A DNA stretch of 64,000 bases from Escherichia coli (GTDB lineage Bacteria; Pseudomonadota; Gammaproteobacteria; Enterobacterales; Enterobacteriaceae): the NCBI RefSeq assembly GCF_050920415.1, contig NZ_CP169309.1. One strand, 5' to 3'. Below the pieces are notes generated by a model. The model did no database searches, had not been told where the DNA came from, and saw only the letters and a program-made list of their open reading frames with translations. Below are positions 13,829 through 34,403 of this stretch, piece by piece. Both the position numbers and the translations under genes were made by a program. Every line of letters begins with the position of its first letter. The first letter of the stretch is position 1.

Positions 13829-15123
13829 TGGCATTAAATGAAGGTCAACTGGTCACATATGCTCTGGATGAAATCATCGAAACCGTCCAGAACCTGACGC
13901 CAATGGCGTCCAAAGTGACAAAATACACCCCTCCGGCAGAATCCATGCAACGTTCAAGCAACACCGTGTGGATGCCTGTTGAGCAGGAAGCGCCAACTCA
14001 GACAGGCTGGGATTTAACTGGCAACGCAACCGGGATTCTGGAACTCTCCGTGAAATGCAACATGGGCGATCCGGATAACGATTTCTTCGAGCTTCGTGCA
14101 GATGACCTGCGTGATGAGCGTTCTTACCGTCGCCGCATCCAGGCATCCGCCAAAAAACTGGCGAATAACATTGAGTCAGCAATTGCCAAACAGGCAACCG
14201 AAATGGGCTCACTTGTTGTTCACGATACCCGCGCAATTGGTCCATCTACTGGCCTGTCTGGCTGGGATTTTGTGTCTGATGCAGAGCGCCTGATGTTCTC
14301 CCGTGAGCTAAACCGCGATATGGGCATCAGTTACTTCCTGAACCCTGACGATTACCGCAAAGCAGGCCGCAACCTGGTAGATGGTGACATCTTTGGGCGC
14401 GTTCCTGAAGAAGCGTATCGTAACGGTACTATTCAGCGTCAGATTGCTGGCTTTGATGAAATTCTTCGCTCACCGAAACTTCCGGCAGTTACCAAGTCAA
14501 CCGCTACTGGTGTAACTGTTTCTGGTGCGCAGAAGTTTAAGCCGCAGGCATACACCCTTGATACCGATGGTAACAAAGAGAACGTCGACAACCGTGTTGC
14601 AACGGTGACCGTATCCTCCACCACCGGATTTAAGCGCGGCGACAAAATCAGCTTCACTGGTGTGAAATTCCTATCTCAGATGGCGAAGAACGTGCTGACT
14701 GATGATGCTACTTTCTCAATCACCCGAGTGATCGATAGTACTCACATCGAAATCACGCCGAAGCCGATTGCGCTGGATGACTCGTCACTGACAAAAGAAG
14801 AGAAGGCTTACGCTAACGTAAACACCTCTCTTGCTGATGCCACTCCGGTAAACGTTCTGAACGTGGCAACAACCACCGCTAACGTGTTCTGGGCTGATGA
14901 CTCAATCCGCCTGCTGTCTCAGCCGATTCCGGTAACCCATGAACTGTTTGCTGGCATGAAAACTTCTTCCTTCAGCATTCCAGGTATTGGTGTTAACGGC
15001 ATCTTCGCAACGCAGGGTGATATCAACACTCTGTCTGGCAAGTGCCGTATTGCTGTGTGGTATTCAGCATGTGCTGTACGACCAGAGGCAATTGGTGTTG
15101 GTCTGCCTAACCAGACTGCGTGA
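13828..15123 (+). CDS. Major coat protein (P22 gp5-like)
   Basis: 431 aa; matches recalled P22 coat (MALNEGQ.., ..[27 protein letters not shown]..). Confidence 0.95.
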
Positions 15124-15131
15124 TAACCAGA

Positions 15132-15154
15132 GGGAGCTTCGGCTCCCTTTTTTA
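15132..15154 (+). terminator. Rho-independent terminator after coat gene
   Basis: GGGAGC-TTCG-GCTCCC hairpin followed by TTTTTTAT. Confidence 0.75.
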
Positions 15155-15167
15155 TCTGGAGACAAGC

Positions 15168-15405
<238 letters not shown>

Positions 15406-15428
<23 letters not shown>

Positions 15429-15906
15429 TTTAGTTCTTGCGGCATTACGTAAGCTCGGTGTGGCATCAAATGCCACGTTAACCGATGTCGAACCGCAGTC
15501 TATGGAAGACGGCGTCAACGACCTTGAAATGATGATGGCTGAATGGCTTGGCGGTGATGTGTCACCTGGTATCAACGTTGGCTACATTTTCGCTGATGCA
15601 GATGTCGCTCCAGATCCGGGCGATGAGCACGGTTTATCAAATAACGCTATCAATGCTGTCATTTTCAACCTTGCCTGCCGCATTGCACCGGATTATGCGC
15701 TGGAAGCGCCTGCAAAACTTATAACCACTGCCAGATACGGGAAAGAGCGACTCGTCAAACTGTCTGCAATGGACAGAGCAAAAGCCGCTAAATGTAAGTC
15801 CGGTTATCCAAACCGTATGCCTGTTGGTAGCGGTAACCAGTTGGCGAAGTGGAACGGTTGGAATTACTTCCACCGAAAGGAACCTTGCGATAACGGGAGC
15901 GAATAA
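15406..15906 (+). CDS. Head completion/tail accessory protein (P22 gp4-like)
   Basis: Start at internal ATG 15406 ([32 protein letters not shown]..), resembles P22 gp4 as recalled. Confidence 0.8.
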
Positions 15907-17324
15907 TGCCGATTCAGCAACTTCCGCTCATGAAAGGTGTCGGCAAAGATTTCCGAAACGCCGACTATATCGACTATCTGCCAGTGAATATGTTGGCTAC
16001 ACCCAAAGAAATCCTCAACAGCAGCGGATATCTTCGCTCATTCCCGGGCATTGCCAAACGCTCTGATGTGAATGGTGTATCGCGCGGTGTCGAGTACAAC
16101 ATGGCGCAGAATGCTGTTTATCGCGTTTGCGGTGGCAAGCTGTACAAAGGAGAAAGTGAAGTCGGTGACGTTGACGGAAGTGGTCGTGTATCAATGGCGC
16201 ATGGTCGGACATCACAGGCGATAGGCGTTAATGGTCAACTGGTCGAGTATCGCTATGATGGCACGGTTAAAACCGTCTCAAACTGGCCTACAGACAGCGG
16301 ATTCACACAGTACGAGTTAGGTTCAGTTCGCGACATTACGCGCTTACGTGGGCGTTATGCGTGGTCAAAAGACGGAACTGATTCATGGTTTATCACTGAC
16401 CCTGAAGACGAATCGCACCCTGACCGATACAGTGCACAATATCGCGCAGAATCGCAGCCGGACGGCATCATCGGTATCGGGACATGGCGAGACTTCATCG
16501 TCTGCTTTGGTTCTTCGACGATTGAGTATTTTTCCCTGACTGGTGCAACCACCGTTGGTTCTGCTTTGTATGTCGCCCAGCCATCGCTGATGGTGCAGAA
16601 AGGCATTGCCGGGACTTACTGCAAAACGCCATTCGCTGATTCTTATGCGTTTATCAGCAATCCGGCAACAGGTGCGCCGTCTGTGTATATCATTGGCTCC
16701 GGTCAGGTGTCACCAATCGCCAGCGCGAGCATTGAGAAAATTCTCCGCTCCTACACTGCTGATGAACTGGCTGATGGTGTGATGGAGTCTCTGCGATTTG
16801 ATGCGCATGAGCTGCTGATTATCCATCTTCCGCGCCATGTTCTGGTGTACGACGCATCTTCAAGCGCCAATGGTCCGCAATGGTGTGTGCTGAAAACAGG
16901 CCTGTATGACGATGTGTACCGCGCTATCGACTTCATTTACGAAGGCAATCAGATAACGTGCGGCGATAAGCTGGAATCCGTGACCGGGAAATTGCAGTTC
17001 GATATCAGCAGTCAGTACGACAAGCAACAGGAACACCTGCTGTTTACTCCTTTGTTCAAAGCAGATAACGCCAGAGTTTTCGACCTTGAAGTTGAATCTT
17101 CAACTGGCGTTGCGCAGTACGCCGACCGCCTGTTCCTCTCTGCAACCACTGACGGCATAAATTACGGTCGTGAGCAGATGATTGAGCAGAATGAACCGTT
17201 CGTTTACGACAAACGCGTTTTGTGGAAGCGTGTCGGGCGCATCAGGAAAAATGTCGGCTTCAAATTGCGCGTTATCACGAAGTCACCTGTAACTCTGTCT
17301 GGCGCTCAGATAAGGATTGAGTAA
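15906..17324 (+). CDS. Tail accessory protein (P22 gp10-like)
   Basis: 472 aa; position in P22 gene order. Confidence 0.8.
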
Positions 17325-18172
17325 TGGCGGATTCGAATCTCAATGTGCCGGTAATCATCCAGGCTACGCGGCTCGATACATCAGTCCTTCCACGCAATAT
17401 CTTCTCGCAGTCGTATCTGCTGTACGTTATCGCGCAAGGTACTGATGTTGGTAACGTGGCTAACAAGGCCAACGAGGCCGGACAGGGCGCTTATGATGCA
17501 CAGGTCAGGAACGATGAGCAGGATGTGATTCTCGCTGACCATGAGCAGCGAATTTCTGCTGCGGAAGCAACGCTTGTTAATCATGAGGAGCGAATCAGCC
17601 AGGCAGAATCAACTCTTCAGGAACATGAAACGCGAATCGCTCAGAATGAAAGCGATATTGCGTCGCTTGATACCAGAGTTCAGTCGCTGGAATCGCAGGT
17701 TTCAGATCATGAATCGCGCATTGATGCTCTGGATTATGCAACCACGCGCAAGAAGTCAGAGGTTGTTTACTCTGGCGTATCAGTAACCATTCCGACAGCG
17801 CCGACCAACCTTGTTAGCCTACTGAAAACGCTCACGCCGTCATCCGGCTCGTTGACACCATTCTTCGACACCGTTAACAACAAGATGGTTGTGTTCAACG
17901 AGAACAAAACCTTGTTCTTCAAGCTGTCGATCGTCGGGACGTGGCCCAGCGGAACCGCCAACAGGTCAATGCAACTAAGCTTTTCCGGCTCTGTTCCTGA
18001 CACACTGGTAAGCAGTCGCAACTCGGCGACAACAACCGATAACATCCTGTTAGCTACGTTCTTCAGCGTGGATAAAGACGGCTTTCTTGCCACAAATGGC
18101 AGTACGTTAACCATTCAGTCAAATGGTGCGGCGTTTACTGCCACAACCATCAAAATCATTGCGGAGCAGTGA
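17324..18172 (+). CDS. Tail needle protein (P22 gp26-like, long C-terminal domain)
   Basis: Heptad-repeat coiled coil ([40 protein letters not shown]..); 282 aa. Confidence 0.8.
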
Positions 18173-18627
18173 TGATTCAGTTCAAACCAACGCGAAACAT
18201 CGACTTGATCGAAGCAGTCGGAAATCACCCTGACATTATTGCCGGGAGCAACAACGGTGATGGATACGACTACAAACCTGATTGCCGTTACTTTGAGGTG
18301 AACGTGCACGGGCAGTTCGGCGGCATTGTTTACTATCAGGAGATTCAGCCGCTGACATTCGATTGCCACGCCATGTACCTGCCAGAGATTCGCGGCTTCA
18401 GCAAGGAAATTGGGCTGGCGTTCTGGCGATACATTCTGACTAACACCACCGTCCAGTGTGTCACATCGTTCGCCGCACGCAAATTCCGCCACGGTCAGAT
18501 GTACTGCGCAATGATTGGCCTTAAGCGTGTAGGAACCATCAAGAAATACTTCAAAGGCGTGGATGACGTGACTTTTTACAGCGCCACACGCGAAGAACTA
18601 ATCGACTTCCTGAATCACGGGAGATAG
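18169..18627 (+). CDS. Head assembly protein (P22 gp14-like)
   Basis: 152 aa; position in P22 gene order. Confidence 0.7.
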
Positions 18628-22749: not shown

Positions 22750-23070
22750 TTAGCGGTTGATGGTTGCTTTTTTCGGGTCATACCATCTCGGCCATTCTTT
22801 CAGGAATGGGAATGAGTCGGGAGCGTGGTTCTTTTTGTACGATTTAAGCAGCCTTAACCGCTCTATCGCACACTCATAAACCTCTTGTTGCCCTGTAGTC
22901 ATCTCGGTCCATGAAAGGTGATCCATTGATAAGACAACGTTTTCAGCTTCTTTTATGAGGGCGTTTTTATTTCTCACCGCAGCAGCATGGCTGACAGAGC
23001 AATCCTGCCATATTCTTAAAAGCCAAATAGCTAAGCAGATAAAAAAAATGGTAGATAGCGATATATACAC
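22750..23070 (-). CDS. Hypothetical single-pass membrane protein (about 106 aa)
   Basis: GTG start 5 nt after AAGGAGG; N-terminal TM segment YISLSTIFFICLAIWLLRIW; longer 178-aa ORF in the track would overlap the + strand gene. Confidence 0.45.
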   Translation of the reverse strand: MYISLSTIFFICLAIWLLRIWQDCSVSHAAAVRNKNALIKEAENVVLSMDHLSWTEMTTGQQEVYECAIERLRLLKSYKKNHAPDSFPFLKEWPRWYDPKKATINR

Positions 23071-23100
23071 ACCAACCTCCTTAGTTTTGAGCAGGATACC

Positions 23101-23466
23101 ATGAAAAAAGTTAACATTGGAAACGTACCAAAGATGCTCGTACCGCTCTTTGAGAGCGGTACAATTGTGTTTTGTAGAGACTTTCCAGAATGGCAACGCC
23201 TGCATCAAAAACTTGGCGTTGACGTGCATGACTCGGACGCCAACGGAGCGTCTCATACAATGAGTAGCGAGAATGGTGTTTTGCATGTGATAGGCGTGTT
23301 CAATGGCAAACTATCTACTATTGCCCATGAGTGCGCTCACATGGCATTCGATATCTGCTCAAGGGTAGGTGTTGATGTTGAACCAGGAAGAGCCAACGAG
23401 ACTTACTGCTACTTAATGAGCAGGCTTGTTGAGTTCTGCGAGCGACATATCAAAAAGCCGGAGTGA
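23101..23466 (+). CDS. Putative zinc metallopeptidase (HExxH motif; ImmA/IrrE- or SprT-like)
   Basis: 121 aa; HECAH motif at residues 76-80. Confidence 0.45.
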   Translation: MKKVNIGNVPKMLVPLFESGTIVFCRDFPEWQRLHQKLGVDVHDSDANGASHTMSSENGVLHVIGVFNGKLSTIAHECAHMAFDICSRVGVDVEPGRANETYCYLMSRLVEFCERHIKKPE

Positions 23467-24778: not shown

Positions 24779-25348
24779 ATGTCAAGCTTAGCAAAGTCAA
24801 CTGTAAATTGCACTAATAGCATCATCATTTCTGACGTCAAGATTCATATGGATTCAGAGGGTCGTTACTCGCTTAATGACCTTCATGTAGCGTCTGGAAA
24901 GGAGGAAAAACATCAGCCAGCTTTCTTCATGCGTAGAAATGAAACTATTGAATTGATTAATGAAATTTTTAATTCTGCGGATATGCAGAATAAGAATCCC
25001 GTCATTTCTAAGAAAGGTAGATATGGTGGAACATACGTGTGCAAGGAGCTTGTTTACTCCTACGCCATGTGGATTAGCGCAGCATTTGCGCTGAAGGTTA
25101 TCCGCGCATATGACGCAATGGTTACTGCCACACAAGAGAGGAAGGCTATTGGCGGTAAAACTTCAGTAGCTGAACGCACGCCGCTACGCGATGCAGTAAA
25201 CATGCTGGTAGGAAAGAAAGGACTTCGCTATGACGATGCATACAATATGGTTCATCAGCGTTTTGGTATTGACAGCATTGATGAACTTTCAATTGAACAA
25301 ATCCCGCTGGCCGTAGAGTACATCCACAGGGTAGTGCTTGAAGGTGAG
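24779..25348 (+). pseudogene. ant: Antirepressor Ant, 5' part (KilA-N domain), interrupted by IS2
   Basis: KilA-N-like N-terminus; reading frame runs into IS2 left end, which supplies the stop (TAG at 25349-25351). Confidence 0.75.
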
Positions 25349-25439
25349 TAGACTGGCCCCCTGAATCTCCAGACAACCAGTATCACTTAAATAAGTGATA
25401 GTCTTAATACTAGTTTTTAGACTAGTCATTGGAGAACAG

Positions 25440-25805
25440 ATGATTGATGTCTTAGGGCCGGAGAAACGCAGACGGCGTACCACACAGGAAAAGATCGCAA
25501 TTGTTCAGCAGAGCTTTGAACCGGGGATGACGGTCTCCCTCGTTGCCCGGCAACATGGTGTAGCAGCCAGCCAGTTATTTCTCTGGCGTAAGCAATACCA
25601 GGAAGGAAGTCTTACTGCTGTCGCCGCCGGAGAACAGGTTGTTCCTGCCTCTGAACTTGCTGCCGCCATGAAGCAGATTAAAGAACTCCAGCGCCTGCTC
25701 GGCAAGAAAACGATGGAAAATGAACTCCTCAAAGAAGCCGTTGAATATGGACGGGCAAAAAAGTGGATAGCGCACGCGCCCTTATTGCCCGGGGATGGGG
25801 AGTAA
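25440..25805 (+). CDS. insC: IS2 transposase OrfA
   Basis: [41 protein letters not shown].. matches InsC as recalled. Confidence 0.9.
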
Positions 25806-26668
25806 GCTTAGTCAGCCGTTGTCTCCGGGTGTCGCGTGCGCAGTTGCACGTCATTCTCAGACGAACCGATGACTGGATGGATGGCCGCCGCAGTCGTCAC
25901 ACTGATGATACGGATGTGCTTCTCCGTATACACCATGTTATCGGAGAGCTGCCCACGTATGGTTATCGTCGGGTATGGGCGCTGCTTCGCAGACAGGCAG
26001 AACTTGATGGTATGCCTGCGATCAATGCCAAACGTGTTTACCGGATCATGCGCCAGAATGCGCTGTTGCTTGAGCGAAAACCTGCTGTACCGCCATCGAA
26101 ACGGGCACATACAGGCAGAGTGGCCGTGAAAGAAAGCAATCAGCGATGGTGCTCTGACGGGTTCGAGTTCTGCTGTGATAACGGAGAGAGACTGCGTGTC
26201 ACGTTCGCGCTGGACTGCTGTGATCGTGAGGCACTGCACTGGGCGGTGACTACTGGCGGCTTCAACAGTGAAACAGTACAGGACGTCATGCTGGGAGCGG
26301 TGGAACGCCGCTTCGGCGACGATCTTCCGTCGTCTCCAGTGGAGTGGCTGACGGATAATGGTTCATGCTACCGGGCTAATGAAACACGCCAGTTCGCCCG
26401 GATGTTGGGACTTGAACCGAAGAACACGGCGGTGCGGAGTCCGGAGAGTAACGGAATAGCAGAGAGCTTCGTGAAAACGATAAAGCGTGACTACATCAGT
26501 ATCATGCCCAAACCAGACGGGTTAACGGCAGCAAAGAACCTTGCAGAGGCGTTCGAGCATTATAACGAATGGCATCCGCATAGTGCGCTGGGTTATCGCT
26601 CGCCACGGGAATATCTGCGGCAGCGGGCTTGTAATGGGTTAAGTGATAACAGATGTCTGGAAATATAG
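25763..26668 (+). CDS. insD: IS2 transposase OrfB (overlaps orfA in -1 frame)
   Basis: 301 aa; DDE transposase matching InsD as recalled. Confidence 0.9.
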
Positions 26669-26679
26669 GGGCAAATCCA

Positions 26680-27005
26680 GTGAGTTCATTGGCAAACAAG
26701 AGAAGAAAACCAACGAGCTTTCTGCAAAAGAAGCAAACAGCCTTGTATGGTTATGGGATTATGCCAACCGCTCACAGGCATTATTCCGCGAATTGTATCC
26801 GGCATTAAAACAAATTCAATCGAACTATTCCGGCAGATGTCATGACTGCGGTTATGAGTTCTCCCGTATTATCGATATAGCGAGAGACGTTTTAATTAAT
26901 CACACACGAGATGTTGATATCAATGAGCCAGACGGACCAACGAATCTTTCCGCATGGATGAGACTTAAGAATAAAGAATTACCTCCTTCAGTACATAATT
27001 ACTGA
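26680..27005 (+). pseudogene. ant: Antirepressor Ant, 3' part
   Basis: After removing IS2 and one TSD copy (1336 bp) this frame joins 24779..25348 in frame, reconstructing a 296-aa protein. Confidence 0.7.
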
Positions 27006-27105: not shown

Positions 27106-29063
27106 ATGACAGACATTACAGCCAATGTTGTAGTGAGCATGCCTTCGCAACTCTTTACTATGGCCCGCTCTTTTAAAGCCGTAGCTAATGGTAAAATTTA
27201 TATCGGTAAAATTGACACTGACCCGGTAAATCCTGAAAACCAGATTCAGGTTTATGTAGAGAACGAAGACGGCTCTCACGTTCCTGTTTCGCAACCAATC
27301 ATCATTAACGCTGCTGGATATCCGGTATATAACGGACAGATTGCCAAATTCGTAACTGTGCAAGGCCATTCTATGGCTGTATATGATGCGTATGGTGCAC
27401 AGCAGTTCTATTTTCCTAATGTGCTGAAGTATGACCCTGATCAGTTTAAGCAGCAGTTAGAAAGCGATGCTGATGGAATGGGAGATGCATTAGTTACAGT
27501 TAAACAACCGTACACTGGTGCTACTTCTATTTCACAGCACATTAAAAATTCACAGGCTATAAGTGTTATTGATTTTGGCGCTACAATTGACGGAACGCTT
27601 CACCCTTTAAGCGAGATATTTTCAACACTATCAGCCGCTCAGATGGTATATCCATTTGTTTCATCTCTATCTCAATCTGTTGATTATGCTGCGCTTCAGT
27701 CCGCATGTAACACGGGAAAAACAGTGCTTATTCCAAAGGGAACTGGTTACTATAATTCAACTATTTTTCTGAAAAACTCCGTCAGGATTGTTGGAGAGGG
27801 AACTGATACAATAAATAGAGCGCAATCATTTATGTCTATTGTTGGTAATATTTCAGCCTTTGCTTTAGATCAAGGTGATTCACTATCGACAAAAATGATT
27901 CAGATTTTTATTGATGGTCTTTATATTTTCTATGATCCAGGAACCACACCAACGAATCCTGAAGATGATGGTGGGAAAATTGCATTTAATTTCTACTCGA
28001 CAATTCCAAATTCAACAAGCTTGGAAATGTCTGAAATTAAAAACTGTACAGTTCATGGTGCATGGTCATGCTTTAATGATCAGACTGGCACATACTTGAC
28101 AAAACTTACGAATGTGTGGGCCAGAAACTGCCATAATGGTTTTACAAAAGGAACTGGCACTACCATTCTGATGGAAAGATGTTATACATCTGGATGTATA
28201 TCACCATATCAGTTTGGTTCTGTCTTTGCAGCTACAATGATTAACTGTGCCATGGATGGATCAAATATTTCGTTAAACGCAGGTTCGCTTGGTGGGGCTG
28301 GCGTTCATGTTCTTAACACACATAGTTTTAACATTATTGGTTTTGATGCGGAGGGTAACACCATCTCTACAGATGGTTATGGAGAGGCAGCACTATTCCA
28401 TTTCGAAAATAGTAGTGGTGGCATTTCTGGCCTGACTGCACATCAGAACAGCATGCGAAGTGTTGCGCCAAGTGATGCTGGTGTAGTTTCCTACATCAGG
28501 GCGTCAGGTAGCAGCGATGTAAAATTGAGTCATCAGAAGATGATTTATCTGACACCAACACAGTTGCATATACTGGGTCTGGGTATCCCATCATGCTACA
28601 TGCAACTGACACAGCTAAAATAAGCGTCTTTAATAGCAGATTCAGGGCGACTACCACTGGTACCCCTGTCTTAAGTACGCTAAGTACTGGTGATGTATCA
28701 TGGTATGACTGCCCTAAAAAAACAGGACTTATCGTAGATGGTTATTCACAAATAACATCTAAGGAAGGATTGCAAACATCATGCTTCTATACCAGTAAAG
28801 GCTCTACTGCTGTTGCTGAAAATACTCCGACAACACTTTTCTCTCTACCAGATTCGCAAGGTACTTACATTATTAGCGTATGGGGGGCTGGAAGCGGAGA
28901 AAATTACGCATCTACACAACTGGCAATGTATGATGGAGATAAGCTAATTCTTGTTGCGTTAAAAATAGCAGCATTTCTTAGTTTTTCAGCAACAGGGAGA
29001 ATTGTAACCATTACAAGCCAGGGCACAGGCACTTTTAATTGGACCTACACAAAAATAGGTTAA
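27106..29063 (+). pseudogene. Tailspike with P22-like head-binding N-terminus and divergent receptor-binding domain; apparent 1-nt frameshift between 28512 and 28590
   Basis: N-terminus [11 protein letters not shown]...[33 protein letters not shown] matches P22 gp9 as recalled; frame 27106..28623 and frame 28512..29063 overlap, together about 652 codons. Confidence 0.65.
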
Positions 29064-29206: not shown

Positions 29207-30364
29207 TCACTCCACCTTTTCATCAATCCAATCCGCCCACCACTGCATCATTTCTCTGCGCTTATCGAGATACTGAGCATGGTTGTAAATTCCGCGCACA
29301 GATCCGCCGTTGGCATGTGCCAGTTGCACTTCAATAGCATCAGCAGGCCATTCGTGCTCGTTCATAATCGTGCTGAATTCATGCCTGAATCCGTGACCGC
29401 TTTCCAGACCTTCATAGCCGATTTGTTTGATCACAAGCAGTACCGCGTTCTCGCAGATTGGCTTCTTCTTATCGTTGCGCCCGGCAAAAACAAACTCTGA
29501 TACTGGTTTGGTGATTGAGCTTAGCGTAGTGAGAAGTTCAACCACCTGGTCCGACATCGGGACAACATGAATCTTGCGTCCCTTCATCACACTGGCGTCG
29601 ATAGTGATAATCCTGTTTTCAAAATCGACGTTCTTCCATTGCATGGAACGAAGCTCTTTCGTTCTTAGGGCTGTGTAGCGTAAAACTTTGGTCGCAATGA
29701 GCGATACGATACTTCCTGAAAATGTTGCCAGTGCTTTGTTGAATGCAGGGATCTGGTCTGCAGGAAGAAACGGGAAGTTCTTCTTGCGGTATCCCTTCAT
29801 GGCGTCAGCAAGGTCAGGTGCCGGGTTATATTTAGCCCTTCCGGTGACAATAGCGTAACGGAAAACCTCGCCGCATCTTCTGCGTGCTTTGTTGGCTCGC
29901 TCCATTGCACCGCGATCTTCAAATCTGCGGATTACTTCCAGAAGTTGCATCGGCTCAATATCCTGAATTTCAAGGCTGCCGATGATAGGTAAAATGTCGT
30001 CATCAAACATTTTGGCAAGTTCAGTTGCATAGCCTACTGACCAGACTTGCTTCTTGTGCTCGTACCATTCCTTGTAAATCGCACTAAAGGAATTGTTGTT
30101 AGACGAAGCCTTTTTCGCCTTTACCGGATCGATACCAACCGAGATGTCTTTCCTCGCAGTCCATGCTTTATCCCTTGCCTCCTGCAAAGTCATAAGCGGA
30201 TATTTTCCGACGGTCAGGATTTTCTCCTTACCGTCAATCTTGTAGCGAAGCTGCCATACCTTTTTCCCTGACACAGGGACATAAAGGTACAGGCCATTAC
30301 CATCGAGAAGGCGGTATGGTTTTTCTTTCGGCTTTGCTGCTTCAATCTGCTTAACGGTGAGCAT
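29207..30364 (-). CDS. intS: Tyrosine integrase (IntS-like)
   Basis: MLTVKQIEAAKPKEKPYRLLDGNGLYLYVP.. matches recalled K-12 IntS; start taken at Met13 of the listed ORF. Confidence 0.9.
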   Translation of the reverse strand: MLTVKQIEAAKPKEKPYRLLDGNGLYLYVPVSGKKVWQLRYKIDGKEKILTVGKYPLMTLQEARDKAWTARKDISVGIDPVKAKKASSNNNSFSAIYKEWYEHKKQVWSVGYATELAKMFDDDILPIIGSLEIQDIEPMQLLEVIRRFEDRGAMERANKARRRCGEVFRYAIVTGRAKYNPAPDLADAMKGYRKKNFPFLPADQIPAFNKALATFSGSIVSLIATKVLRYTALRTKELRSMQWKNVDFENRIITIDASVMKGRKIHVVPMSDQVVELLTTLSSITKPVSEFVFAGRNDKKKPICENAVLLVIKQIGYEGLESGHGFRHEFSTIMNEHEWPADAIEVQLAHANGGSVRGIYNHAQYLDKRREMMQWWADWIDEKVE

Positions 30365-30525
30365 GGGTAAAAATCCGGTGGGTAAAATTATTTTATCCAC
30401 TTTTTACCCGTCATGGTGTGCGGCTGTCAACGATCTGACGCGAACCATGACGAACTGTGAATCTACGGAAGGCTTGATATTCAGGGGATTTTGCGGACTG
30501 GTACGGATGGGAGCGAACTGATAAA

Positions 30526-30600
30526 TGGTGTCCCCTGCAGGAATCGAACCTGCAATTAGCCCTTAGGAGGGGCTCGTTATATCCATTTAACTAAGAGGAC
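30526..30600 (-). tRNA. argW: tRNA-Arg (argW), prophage integration site
   Basis: Reverse complement reads GTCCTCTTAGTTAAATGGATATAACGAGCCCCTCCTAAGGGCTAATTGCAGGTTCGATTCCTGCAGGGGACACCA. Confidence 0.95.
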
Positions 30601-30675
30601 AATGCGGCATGAGTATACCCGCTAATGCTCAGCGGGGTAAGTACACTGCCGCTCGATTGCTTAAACCCTCGCCAT

Positions 30676-31608
30676 TTATGCCGGGTTTTTATCATTTTTC
30701 TTAATGTTTTCCGCACGTTCTGCTTTTTGTCGTGCTTCTGCTTTGCGCTTGTTGCTCATGTCGTTACGGATCTGTGCATGACTCATTAACGCGAATATAA
30801 AGGTGCCGCCGCAGATGTTTCCTGCCAGAGTAGGCAGCGCGAAGGGCCAGATGAAATCGCTCCAGTGCAGCGTGCCGTTAAATACCAGATAGAGGATTTC
30901 TACAGAACCGACAACGATGTGGGTGGTGTCTCCGAGGGCGATAAGCCAGGTCATTAATATAATCACTACAATCTTTGCCGCACCCGCTGCAGGAAACATC
31001 CATACCATAGTGGCGATCAGCCAGCCGGAAATGATCGCGTTGGCAAACATCTCACTGGGGGTGTTCTTCATCACATCCATGCCGATTTTTACAAATGCAT
31101 CGCGAGTTTCTTCATTAAAGATAGGCATATATTCAAATGCCCACGCCGCAATACCTGTCCCGAGAATATTCCCCAGCAGCACGACGCCCCATAACCGCAT
31201 AAGTAAGCCGACGTTGCTCATTGTCGGTTTTTGCATGACGGGTAGTACCGCAGTCACGGTGTTTTCGGTAAATAATTGCTGGCGGGCCATAATGACGATA
31301 ATAAAGCCAAAGGTATAACCGAGATTCTCCAGCAAGAAACTGCCCGGCACGCCTTCCAGTTCGACATGAAATATCCCTTTTGCCAGTAGTGAAGCGCCCA
31401 TCGACAGACCCGCCGCAATGGCTGACCACAGTAGCGCCATTGCGTCGCGTTCCAGCTCTTTTTCACCATCCTGGCGGATATGTTCATGAATTGCCATCGC
31501 CCGGGAGGGGAGTCGGTCTTCATCTATTTCTATTTTTTTGCCGCGTTCTTTTTCTTCGCTCTCAACTTCAATTTCGTCGCTGTGTTGATCAATTTTGTCG
31601 TTGTCCAT
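30676..31608 (-). CDS. yfdC: Formate/nitrite-transporter-family inner membrane protein
   Basis: 310 aa polytopic membrane protein; synteny with K-12. Confidence 0.8.
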   Translation of the reverse strand: MDNDKIDQHSDEIEVESEEKERGKKIEIDEDRLPSRAMAIHEHIRQDGEKELERDAMALLWSAIAAGLSMGASLLAKGIFHVELEGVPGSFLLENLGYTFGFIIVIMARQQLFTENTVTAVLPVMQKPTMSNVGLLMRLWGVVLLGNILGTGIAAWAFEYMPIFNEETRDAFVKIGMDVMKNTPSEMFANAIISGWLIATMVWMFPAAGAAKIVVIILMTWLIALGDTTHIVVGSVEILYLVFNGTLHWSDFIWPFALPTLAGNICGGTFIFALMSHAQIRNDMSNKRKAEARQKAERAENIKKNDKNPA

Positions 31609-31902
31609 GGTCTCTTCTCTTGAATTAGCACGTATAGCTAAAGCGTAGCGGCTTTTTTGCTCGCAACTGGCGGGAGTTACTCTGAAAATGTAGAAAAGGC
31701 TGTGTTTGCCTTTTTCTGTTTCTATAGAATCAAGTAGCCTACAGGGCGTCGATTACCAGGCTATGATCAAATCAGCAAATCAGGGCGTCTGGACATCAGT
31801 TGACGTGCTGTTACAATCGCCCACACCTAAACAGGCGGATACGGTATCGTTCCGTCATGGATGGCAAACTGCATAAGCCATAAAAAAAACAGGGAGACAT
31901 TT

Positions 31903-32658
31903 ATGAAGCTTCGCCTGTCGGCGCTTGCTCTTGGAACTACGCTTCTGGTGGGGTGTGCGAGTTCCGGTACAGATCAGCAAGGGCGTTCTGACCCATTAGA
32001 AGGGTTCAACCGCACCATGTACAACTTCAACTTCAATGTATTAGACCCGTATATTGTTCGACCGGTCGCAGTCGCCTGGCGTGATTATGTTCCGCAACCG
32101 GCGCGTAACGGTTTGAGCAACTTTACCGGCAACCTTGAAGAACCTGCGGTGATGGTTAACTACTTCTTGCAGGGCGACCCTTATCAGGGGATGGTCCACT
32201 TTACCCGCTTTTTCCTGAACACTATTTTGGGGATGGGCGGCTTTATTGATGTTGCGGGGATGGCGAACCCGAAACTGCAACGGACTGAACCTCACCGCTT
32301 CGGTAGTACGCTTGGTCATTATGGCGTGGGGTATGGGCCGTACGTACAATTACCGTTCTACGGAAGCTTCACGCTGCGTGATGACGGCGGTGATATGGCG
32401 GATGGTCTTTACCCGGTACTTTCCTGGCTGACCTGGCCGATGTCCGTGGGTAAATGGACGCTTGAAGGTATCGAAACCCGTGCGCAACTGCTGGATTCCG
32501 ACGGCCTGCTGCGTCAGTCGTCCGACCCATACATTATGGTGCGCGAAGCGTACTTCCAGCGTCATGATTTCATCGCCAATGGCGGCGAACTCAAACCGCA
32601 GGAAAACCCGAACGCGCAAGCGATTCAGGATGAGTTAAAAGATATCGATTCTGAATAA
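31903..32658 (+). CDS. mlaA: Outer-membrane lipoprotein MlaA (VacJ)
   Basis: Start at ATG 31903 (MKLRLSALALGTTLLVGCASS lipoprotein signal); 251 aa. Confidence 0.9.
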   Translation: MKLRLSALALGTTLLVGCASSGTDQQGRSDPLEGFNRTMYNFNFNVLDPYIVRPVAVAWRDYVPQPARNGLSNFTGNLEEPAVMVNYFLQGDPYQGMVHFTRFFLNTILGMGGFIDVAGMANPKLQRTEPHRFGSTLGHYGVGYGPYVQLPFYGSFTLRDDGGDMADGLYPVLSWLTWPMSVGKWTLEGIETRAQLLDSDGLLRQSSDPYIMVREAYFQRHDFIANGGELKPQENPNAQAIQDELKDIDSE

Positions 32659-32668
32659 GAAACAAATA

Positions 32669-32698
32669 AAAAGGTGAGTCGCAAAACTCACCTTTTTT
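32669..32698 (+). terminator. Rho-independent terminator after mlaA
   Basis: AAAGGTGAGT..ACTCACCTTTTTT hairpin. Confidence 0.7.
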
Positions 32699-32837
32699 GT
32701 TGTTATCCCTCAATTACCACAAGTAAAAGGAGACAAACCGACAATGACCCGGACGAATTATGTAAAAATACTGATGTTCGTCACTGACTGTTTCCGATAT
32801 TCAGACGTTGAAAAATCAAAAAACTGGACAAATAATT

Positions 32838-34037
32838 TTAATTATCATCAAAATTAACACCCAACGCAGAGAGTTGTTTAATTTCACTTTGATATTTCAT
32901 CTGGCGATTTTGAAGTCTTTTTTCAACTTTATCTTCGATTTCCTTAAACTGTTTATATTCATTTTGAGAGTTGTCAACGTCAACTTCGTTAGCGAATAAA
33001 GTAGAAATTATTTCTTTTACATTATCGCGTCTAAATTTTGCATCGTCCACTTGAAAATTGTATCTTATTGCTCGACCTAAACGTTTAAAAACTTCGTTAG
33101 GTTCTCTCAGTCTTTCCCCGTTGAGCTCGTTTACAACCTGATGATCGGAACCTGTTGCGAATGATTCTGCCATGATAGCTTTACTGCTTTCAAACCACGC
33201 TGAAGCATTCCTGGCGTTTTCACTACAATATTGGGTGAGACTATCACCATTAATACGAATTCCTCTTTGAATGTGGTAGTCGTCCTGATCGTAGTAACCG
33301 AGAGATAAGTAATCATTTCCGTTTTTATTTTTAATTACAATAGCGAGAGAGTCGCCTTTTTTATCTTTACCGTACCAGGTAAATAAGTCCGTTGGTTCGC
33401 TTTTCCCGCTCTCATCAAGTTTCGTTACCGTATGTCTGAGTTTGTGTGATATTTTATCGAAGATAAAACCAGGATTTCCATCATATATTTCTTTTATTGC
33501 GCTGAAGATCATTTCCTTGTTATGGATATCATGAGTATTCTCTACTACATTTTCACTGATGATGGTTTGACCGACTTTTTTGTTTTCATCGTTCGCAGGT
33601 GATTTTGTTGGTTCTTGATTATTAATACCAATAATACCATCATCAGTATATTCAGCATTATTTATATCATCATGAGTCTTCTCAACTATGTTGTCATTAA
33701 TGATAGTACGGACGAGTTCTTTGTCTTTATAGTTCGCAGATAATTTTATTGGTTCTTGGTTGTCGATACCAATAGTAATATAGTCTGTATCATTGGAGCC
33801 AATATCAATATAAGTAACTGAGGAATTATTGATAATTATTCTATCAAGTTCACCGGTTCCTCGTATGGCATTTTTTATAAGCTCAAGTAGATGTTTAATA
33901 CAGGTACTTATTCCTTCCTTGCCATTAAAAAGGTTTTTGAACTCTTGTACTAATCCATTAACTTCATTATTGTTATTTTCATTGGTGGATTCTGTGTAAG
34001 TTGGGCAGGTATTGTTGATTGAAACAGCTGGTAGCAT
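32838..34037 (-). CDS. yfdF: Uncharacterised protein YfdF-like
   Basis: 399 aa, Asn/Asp-rich; position between mlaA and fadL. Confidence 0.6.
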   Translation of the reverse strand: MLPAVSINNTCPTYTESTNENNNNEVNGLVQEFKNLFNGKEGISTCIKHLLELIKNAIRGTGELDRIIINNSSVTYIDIGSNDTDYITIGIDNQEPIKLSANYKDKELVRTIINDNIVEKTHDDINNAEYTDDGIIGINNQEPTKSPANDENKKVGQTIISENVVENTHDIHNKEMIFSAIKEIYDGNPGFIFDKISHKLRHTVTKLDESGKSEPTDLFTWYGKDKKGDSLAIVIKNKNGNDYLSLGYYDQDDYHIQRGIRINGDSLTQYCSENARNASAWFESSKAIMAESFATGSDHQVVNELNGERLREPNEVFKRLGRAIRYNFQVDDAKFRRDNVKEIISTLFANEVDVDNSQNEYKQFKEIEDKVEKRLQNRQMKYQSEIKQLSALGVNFDDN

Positions 34038-34403
34038 GATTTTATTCCACGTTGATTGATTTGTTGCAAATATATATTACCTAATAAAATAGACTATCAA
34101 AAAACGCTCATTTATTTAGAACCTATCTTTAATTTGAGTGTATGAGTGCATAATAGCCAGGGTGGTTTGAGTATCCTGGAAATTCAGAAAAGTAAACTCA
34201 TTGAGAAGGACGAGCAGAATGCCTGATAATCTGTCTTTCCCTTTAGGCCTGTCTGTGGATAACGCTTACAAATTTGCAAGGGCAAGCTGCCATCAGGCTG
34301 TTTGCAAAACTCAGGAGGCAAGCAATGAGGAAACTACTTTCGGTGAAGAGAGGGAGTTAAAGTCACCTGCATAGCAGGTGACTTTAACTAAGCTAACGCG
34401 TTA

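Follow-up and report, generated by a model that had tools for sequence, protein, structure and literature searches.

An Sf6-type tail needle with a TNF-like knob in a P22-like prophage at the argW locus

Introduction

What kind of tip does the tail needle encoded at this locus carry, and what might such a tip contribute to infection? The question is raised by an open reading frame at 17324..18172 on the + strand of the window, which here means the whole stretch of 64,000 nucleotides that was analysed. The knob of Sf6-type needles has been described as a TNF-like jelly roll that resembles the knobs of PRD1 and adenovirus (PMC3741392). In a survey from 2013, the knobs of P22-like phages were found to differ by at most 4.9% and were seen only in Escherichia and Shigella phages (PMC3741392). 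Based on the data presented below, we have hardly any doubt that this reading frame specifies an Sf6-type tail needle and belongs to a P22-like (Lederbergvirus-like) prophage, which resides at the argW tRNA-Arg(CCT) of an Escherichia-type chromosome.

Materials and methods

The identity of the needle, its domain layout, its fold, its ligand-contact residues and its gene context were analysed directly in the window, and the mechanism was drawn from the literature on Sf6 and P22 (PMC3741392, PMC9728967, PMC9400499). The boundary of the knob (Sf6 residues 140-282) and the residues contacting its ligands were taken from Leavitt et al. 2013 (PMC3741392). For the knob, a single-sequence AlphaFold prediction was unusable (pLDDT about 40), and an alignment-based model was used in its place. 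The input of this model consisted of residues 122-282 and a 14-sequence alignment of homologues, which were retrieved by tblastn of a phage collection.

Identity of the needle gene

According to the ORF list, the gene comprises 282 codons plus TGA and begins with ATG, and an AAGGA motif lies 5' of this start codon. The ATG shares bases with the stop codon of the upstream tail hub gene (TAATG), and the TGA shares bases with the downstream ATG (TGATG). As P22 gp26 has a length of 233 aa (PDB chains 2POH, 5BU5), the window needle is 49 residues longer, which confirms the surplus of approximately 50 residues noted in the initial annotation.

Compared with gp9 of Shigella phage Sf6, 273 of the 282 residues are identical (97%) at equal length and with zero gaps, and both proteins have the same three-part layout, the same flanking genes and overlapping start and stop junctions. 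All nine substitutions relative to Sf6 are conservative (R92S, D100E, S113A, T131S, E137D, T176S, A178T, T219S, S270A); none of them is located in residues 1-60, five are found in the shaft, and the last four are found in the knob. At the DNA level, the identity to Sf6 was 95.4%, and the codon differences were divided into 29 synonymous and 9 non-synonymous changes, which indicates purifying selection on the needle.

The Pfam family PF16532 (Sf6-type phage tail needle knob) matched needle residues 108-282 over the complete model (positions 1-175 of 175) with 379.9 bits at a cutoff of 27, and the remaining Pfam matches were sub-threshold coiled-coil noise. When the PDB was searched by sequence, the crystal structures of the knobs of Sf6 (3RWN, E 6.7e-89) and of the E. 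coli prophage HS1 (4K6B, E 1.9e-88) matched residues 130-282 with identities of 96-97%. The overall identity to Sf6 gp9, the E values of about 1e-88 and the Pfam score of 380 bits bear out the proposal, made earlier with regards to the extra length, that the C-terminus is of the Sf6-like knob type. No evidence contradicting the needle identification was found. The needle itself is nothing new and already known, and a structure has been solved for a domain of 96-97% identity; the exact protein is publicly available as well (e.g., EGE64290.1, RefSeq MULTISPECIES entry, "tail needle knob protein [Escherichia coli]").

Gene neighbourhood and prophage mosaic

Directly upstream of the needle, the tail hub gene (homologue of P22 gp10 and Sf6 gp8; 15906..17324, + strand; PF11134, Phage_stabilise, 989 bits) encodes the expected binding partner of the needle N-terminus. 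On the other side, a DUF2824 protein is encoded (homologue of P22 gp14 and Sf6 gp10; 18172..18627, + strand; PF11039, 180 bits), the gene of which probably starts with the ATG at 18172 and overlaps the needle stop codon. The order of hub, needle, DUF2824 protein and ejection proteins equals that of the Sf6 genes 8-9-10-11-12-13, and the one-base overlap of hub and needle is present in Sf6 as well.

In a wider frame, the genes form a P22-like late operon, which begins with a small terminase (PF16677), a large terminase, a P22-type portal, a scaffold, a coat and a gp4 homologue (PF11650), and continues with the tail hub, the needle, the DUF2824 protein and three ejection-protein-sized ORFs. Past the latter, a tailspike with a P22 head-binding domain (PF09008) is followed by the integrase gene (29207-30400, - strand), which abuts the tRNA-Arg(CCT) at 30526-30600, beside yfdC and mlaA. 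Within the prophage (window 8000-30700), the region from the terminase to the ejection proteins matches phages IME10, Dewey and Louie with an identity of about 96%, and IME10 and Dewey have the needle gene in common only over its first 25-50%, i.e., its N-terminal part. Despite the close match of the needle, the prophage does not otherwise resemble Sf6; the terminase, portal and coat are of the P22/IME10 type and the tailspike body is of another type. An alignment of this tailspike with that of phage Louie was uninformative past the head-binding domain, because the two phages have unrelated receptor-binding bodies. As a mosaic of modules, the prophage combines a P22/IME10-type head, an Sf6-type needle and a tailspike body of a third type, and such a make-up is typical of P22-like phages. 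The result places the needle in the Sf6 knob class and not in the P22 tip class, which matters little.

Several minor features were observed in the same region. A perfect hexanucleotide tandem repeat, (CAGAGC) x 7.7, is located at 15313-15358 and encodes (EP)8 in a small ORF (15120-15428) between the coat gene and the gp4 homologue; a Pfam search of this ORF gave no match. Where the gp4 ORF extends further upstream, the same repeat reads (QS)n; the genuine start of gp4 is probably the ATG at 15406, giving a protein of 166 aa. Directly past the gp16-homologue ejection gene, an ORF of 178 aa is found on the - strand (22750-23286), which also gave no match in a Pfam search. Its position is presumably the one where P22 carries its superinfection-exclusion and immI-region genes. 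At the attachment site, the Sf6 record describes an attP that is extremely similar to the attP of HK620. When window 30400-34400 was compared with complete E. coli genomes, the best matches were 99.2% identical, and most genomes reached only 90-95%.

State of the prophage

Neither the needle ORF nor any of the neighbouring morphogenesis ORFs is truncated, but the surrounding prophage may be defective. At 27106-29063, the tailspike gene is split into an ORF of 505 aa with the PF09008 head-binding domain (27106-28623) and an ORF of 156 aa (28593-29063). Compared with an intact, 97.6%-identical gene of 652 codons in E. coli ETEC1730, the break near 28520 is a deletion of 1 nt, with GATG-TAAAA in the window and GATGTTAAAA in ETEC1730. 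The split gene is either a pseudogene or the product of a sequencing error. Among 5426 complete E. coli genomes, only 5 contain this type of tailspike at a query coverage of at least 80%.

Furthermore, an IS3-family element of about 1.3 kb is present at 25358-26671, flanked by imperfect terminal inverted repeats of 33 nt (25358-25390 and 26639-26671) and comprising an ORF with an rve domain (25763-26668) and an upstream ORF (25395-25805). It sits between a KilA-N ORF (24779-25351) and an ORF at 26643-27005. Since an uninterrupted antirepressor gene for 300 aa is found in ETEC1730 just upstream of the tailspike, these two flanking ORFs look like the putative halves of a single antirepressor-like gene that was split by the element.

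Due to the tailspike frameshift and the IS insertion, the needle may never reach an infectious particle if the frameshift is genuine and not an error of sequencing. Both defects would fit a needle gene that is a functionless relic of a decaying prophage, intact only because the inactivation was recent and of no benefit to cell or phage. However, the full-length needle and morphogenesis ORFs, the 29:9 ratio of synonymous to non-synonymous differences from Sf6 and the occurrence of the identical needle protein on 20 contigs argue against such decay, and the single-base indel could have arisen during sequencing or assembly. We therefore regard a relic as possible but rather unlikely. It would concern the present activity of the gene only, as the defects bear on the use of the needle and not on the identity of the protein.

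Domain layout

In accordance with Sf6 gp9, the Sf6-type needle is divided into three parts. The first, residues 1-60 (17324..17503, + strand), is the domain predicted to plug the channel of the tail hub, and all of its 60 residues are identical to Sf6. In the PDB sequence search, residues 3-64 were aligned to 8EAP chain B, and residues 1-137 can be aligned to gp26, so that the gp26-type N-terminal hub-binding domain is present. In the cryo-EM structure of the Sf6 tail, this N-terminal plug consists of quasi-sixfold helical hairpins (PMC9728967).

The second part is a coiled-coil shaft (residues 61-139; 17504..17740, + strand), as derived from the heptad analysis and an AlphaFold helix. In residues 70-133, one heptad position is occupied by I, L or V in ten consecutive heptads with zero stutters, and the second core position, three residues on, reads H/A/H/A/H/N/L/L/H/L. 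With the best register for residues 62-138, I, L or V was found at 10 of 11 positions; when the segment was shuffled 20000 times, this fraction was never attained. An alternative reading of the same segment is a series of five 14-residue repeats (LxxHExRIxxxExx). In the single-sequence AlphaFold prediction of the full needle, a continuous helix extends over residues 42-141, with block means of the pLDDT between 81 and 94 for residues 61-130. The earlier description of the N-terminal half as a heptad coiled coil applies to residues 70-133, but not to residues 1-60, which belong to the hub-plugging domain and not to the shaft.

The third part is the TNF-like jelly-roll knob at the distal tip (residues 140-282; 17741..18169, + strand), to which the 3RWN and 4K6B matches, PF16532 and the structural model all point. 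The content of serine and threonine is 29% in residues 140-282 versus 14% in residues 1-139. A distinct Ser/Thr-rich C-terminal domain, as had been suggested, is present, but it extends over about 143 residues and not over approximately 100.

Fold and ligand-contact residues of the knob

A structure prediction of residues 180-282 and its comparison with the Sf6 knob had been proposed as a check; since the knob starts at about residue 140, this range would have halved the domain, and the prediction was carried out on residues 122-282. The alignment-based AlphaFold model reached a mean pLDDT of 89.7 and a pTM of 0.81 and is composed of a short helix followed by a beta-sandwich. When this model was searched against the PDB with Foldseek, 3RWN and 4K6B were the top matches (E about 1e-25, TM 0.88-0.92, rmsd 1.9-2.1 Å). 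The next neighbours were members of the TNF family (EDA-A1, TNF-alpha, BAFF), C1q globular heads, BclA and ExsFA of the Bacillus exosporium, and PRD1 P5, which agrees with the TNF-like jelly roll described for Sf6 (PMC3741392). Residues 147-281 were predicted as beta strands in both the single-sequence and the alignment-based model; the coiled coil does not extend through the C-terminus, which is beta-rich, and the needle differs in length from P22 gp26.

In Sf6, L-glutamate is contacted by Glu146, Lys200, Ser248, Asp250, Leu255 and Lys277, and phosphate is contacted by Ser231-Arg232-Asn233 (PMC3741392). In Sf6 numbering, all of these published residues are identical in the window needle. Five of them (Glu146, Lys200, Ser248, Asp250 and Arg232) are invariant throughout the 14-sequence alignment, which includes sequences from Ackermannviridae, Straboviridae and other large phages at identities of 35-49%. 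From the 97%-identical Sf6 protein, we infer that the window needle would form a homotrimer, bind L-glutamate and plug the hub.

The four knob substitutions relative to Sf6 amount to a divergence of 2.8% (4/143), inside the maximum of 4.9% given in PMC3741392.

Possible role of the tip

By homology to Sf6 gp9 and P22 gp26, three needle chains would assemble into one fibre of three parts. The helical hairpins of residues 1-60 would enter and seal the channel of the hexameric tail hub, which is the product of the gene directly upstream, and the closed channel would keep the packaged DNA inside the virion. Residues of about 61-139 would form a trimeric coiled-coil shaft that reaches beyond the tailspikes, and residues 140-282 a trimeric TNF-like jelly-roll knob at its far tip. 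If the knob follows the crystal structures, each interface between subunits would hold one L-glutamate, and a phosphate would be bound on the three-fold axis. During infection, the needle is expected to touch the outer membrane and then to be lost, which would open the channel for the ejection proteins and the DNA. In P22, cryo-electron tomography of adsorption indicated that the needle contacts the cell surface, whereupon the particle reorients, the needle is lost and the ejection proteins provide a conduit for the DNA (as summarized in PMC9400499). Trimer formation, plugging, release and a kinetic role would carry over to the window needle to the degree that it behaves like its 97%-identical Sf6 counterpart and like P22. 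With respect to the latter role, the tip domain may set the speed at which DNA delivery begins rather than the host that is infected. Changes of the tip altered the kinetics of DNA delivery, as measured in chimeras of P22 on Salmonella and not on an Escherichia host (PMC3741392).

The initial annotation had added that needle tips can influence host range. Taken further, this would make the knob a receptor-binding determinant of host range that recognizes a specific outer-membrane component, so that its alleles change which strains can be infected. Such a function would suit the most distal point of the tail, a set of fold neighbours that includes receptor-binding and vertex proteins (PRD1 P5 and TNF/C1q-type heads), and glutamate-contact residues that stay invariant even among remote phage homologues, suggestive of a function that is conserved (cf. 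PMC3741392). However, P22 chimeras with the needle or knob sequence of Sf6 or HS1 infected Salmonella efficiently, and mutants of the glutamate site showed normal plating and normal K+ release (PMC3741392). The mutations that expanded the host range of Sf6 were all located in the tailspike (PMC9400499). In addition, the knob appears too uniform for a specificity determinant, considering the survey maximum of 4.9% and only four conservative differences from Sf6 among 143 residues. Knob swaps with unchanged host specificity and the mapping of the Sf6 mutations to the tailspike leave the host-range remark unsupported and make it the weakest part of the earlier description, and we deem a receptor-binding knob improbable.

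A role of the knob that is specific to the infection of Escherichia or Shigella is possible, and the authors of PMC3741392 left room for a function specific to Shigella infection. In its most elaborate form, the knob with its glutamate pocket would be a sensor of an envelope component in Escherichia and Shigella, and Ser176, Thr178, Ser219 and Ala270 would tune which strains trigger the release of the needle. We give this version very little credence; if true, the sensor role would be invisible in the published P22/Salmonella chimera experiments. The purpose of the conserved glutamate-binding knob is a question for the whole family, which is no more tractable with the allele of the window. A kinetic role in DNA delivery remains our preferred reading for the tip.

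Comparison with related needles

Next to Sf6 gp9, the needle of HS1 is another close relative with a structurally characterized tip, with a knob that is essentially identical to that of the window needle (4K6B). At position 270, the alanine of the window needle corresponds to the HS1 state (HS1 Ala305). The HS1 needle is 317 aa long with a shaft extended by 35 residues, i.e., five heptads (PMC3741392), whereas the window needle has the shorter shaft of Sf6 length.

The hub-binding domain at the N-terminus and the beginning of the trimeric coiled coil are common to the window needle and gp26 of Salmonella phage P22 (2POH, 3C9I, 4ZKP), as are the position in the operon and the presumed role as a portal-channel plug and membrane-contacting needle. 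However, residues 141-233 of gp26 form an unrelated tip domain without a knob. In the PDB sequence search, the gp26 structures were aligned from residue 1 of the needle with E values of about 1e-44, but homology to the gp26 tip was not found in the needle C-terminus, as all alignments of gp26 chains stop at residue 137-155 and the C-terminal 140 residues match knob structures only. A P22-type needle with extra coiled coil and no tip domain, in favour of which only the N-terminal half in common with gp26 can be cited, has next to no probability, given the end of the gp26 alignment at 137-155, the beta strands at 147-281 and the match to knob structures.

More distantly, knobs with an identity of 35-49% are found in CBA120 orf226, in other Kuttervirus, in Straboviridae and Vequintavirinae phages, and in the Autographiviridae phage ECBP5. 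The equivalents of Glu146, Lys200, Ser248, Asp250 and Arg232 are invariant in the CBA120-type large virulent phages and in ECBP5. Unlike the window needle, these proteins are devoid of a gp26-type N-terminal plug, and their N-terminal parts are short or unrelated.

Distribution in phages and genomes

Among phages, genes that are 95-96.5% identical to the needle gene and annotated as tail needle knob protein are found, e.g., in Louie, N7, Kapi1, phiKp_30 and Sf6. With regards to bacterial chromosomes, matches of at least 80% coverage were obtained in 474 of 5426 complete E. coli genomes, and among the E. coli matches listed, the PGAP annotation reads "tail needle knob protein". At 90% identity, the needle belongs to a protein cluster of 3620 members. 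This cluster also contains proteins of 153-159 aa named "DUF2824 family protein", which correspond to the product of the downstream gene and are presumably a clustering artefact.

Finally, full-length needles of the knob type were also observed in phages deposited for other hosts. The Salmonella phage vB_SalP_ABTNLsp11242, a Lederbergvirus of S. Typhimurium, encodes one at MW790496.1 19306-20169 that is 60% identical to the window needle overall and 74% identical over residues 122-282. In phiKp_30, which was deposited as a Klebsiella phage, the knob-type needle is 96% identical to that of the window. Compared with the survey of 2013 (PMC3741392), both needles indicate that the known distribution of the knob has since become wider.
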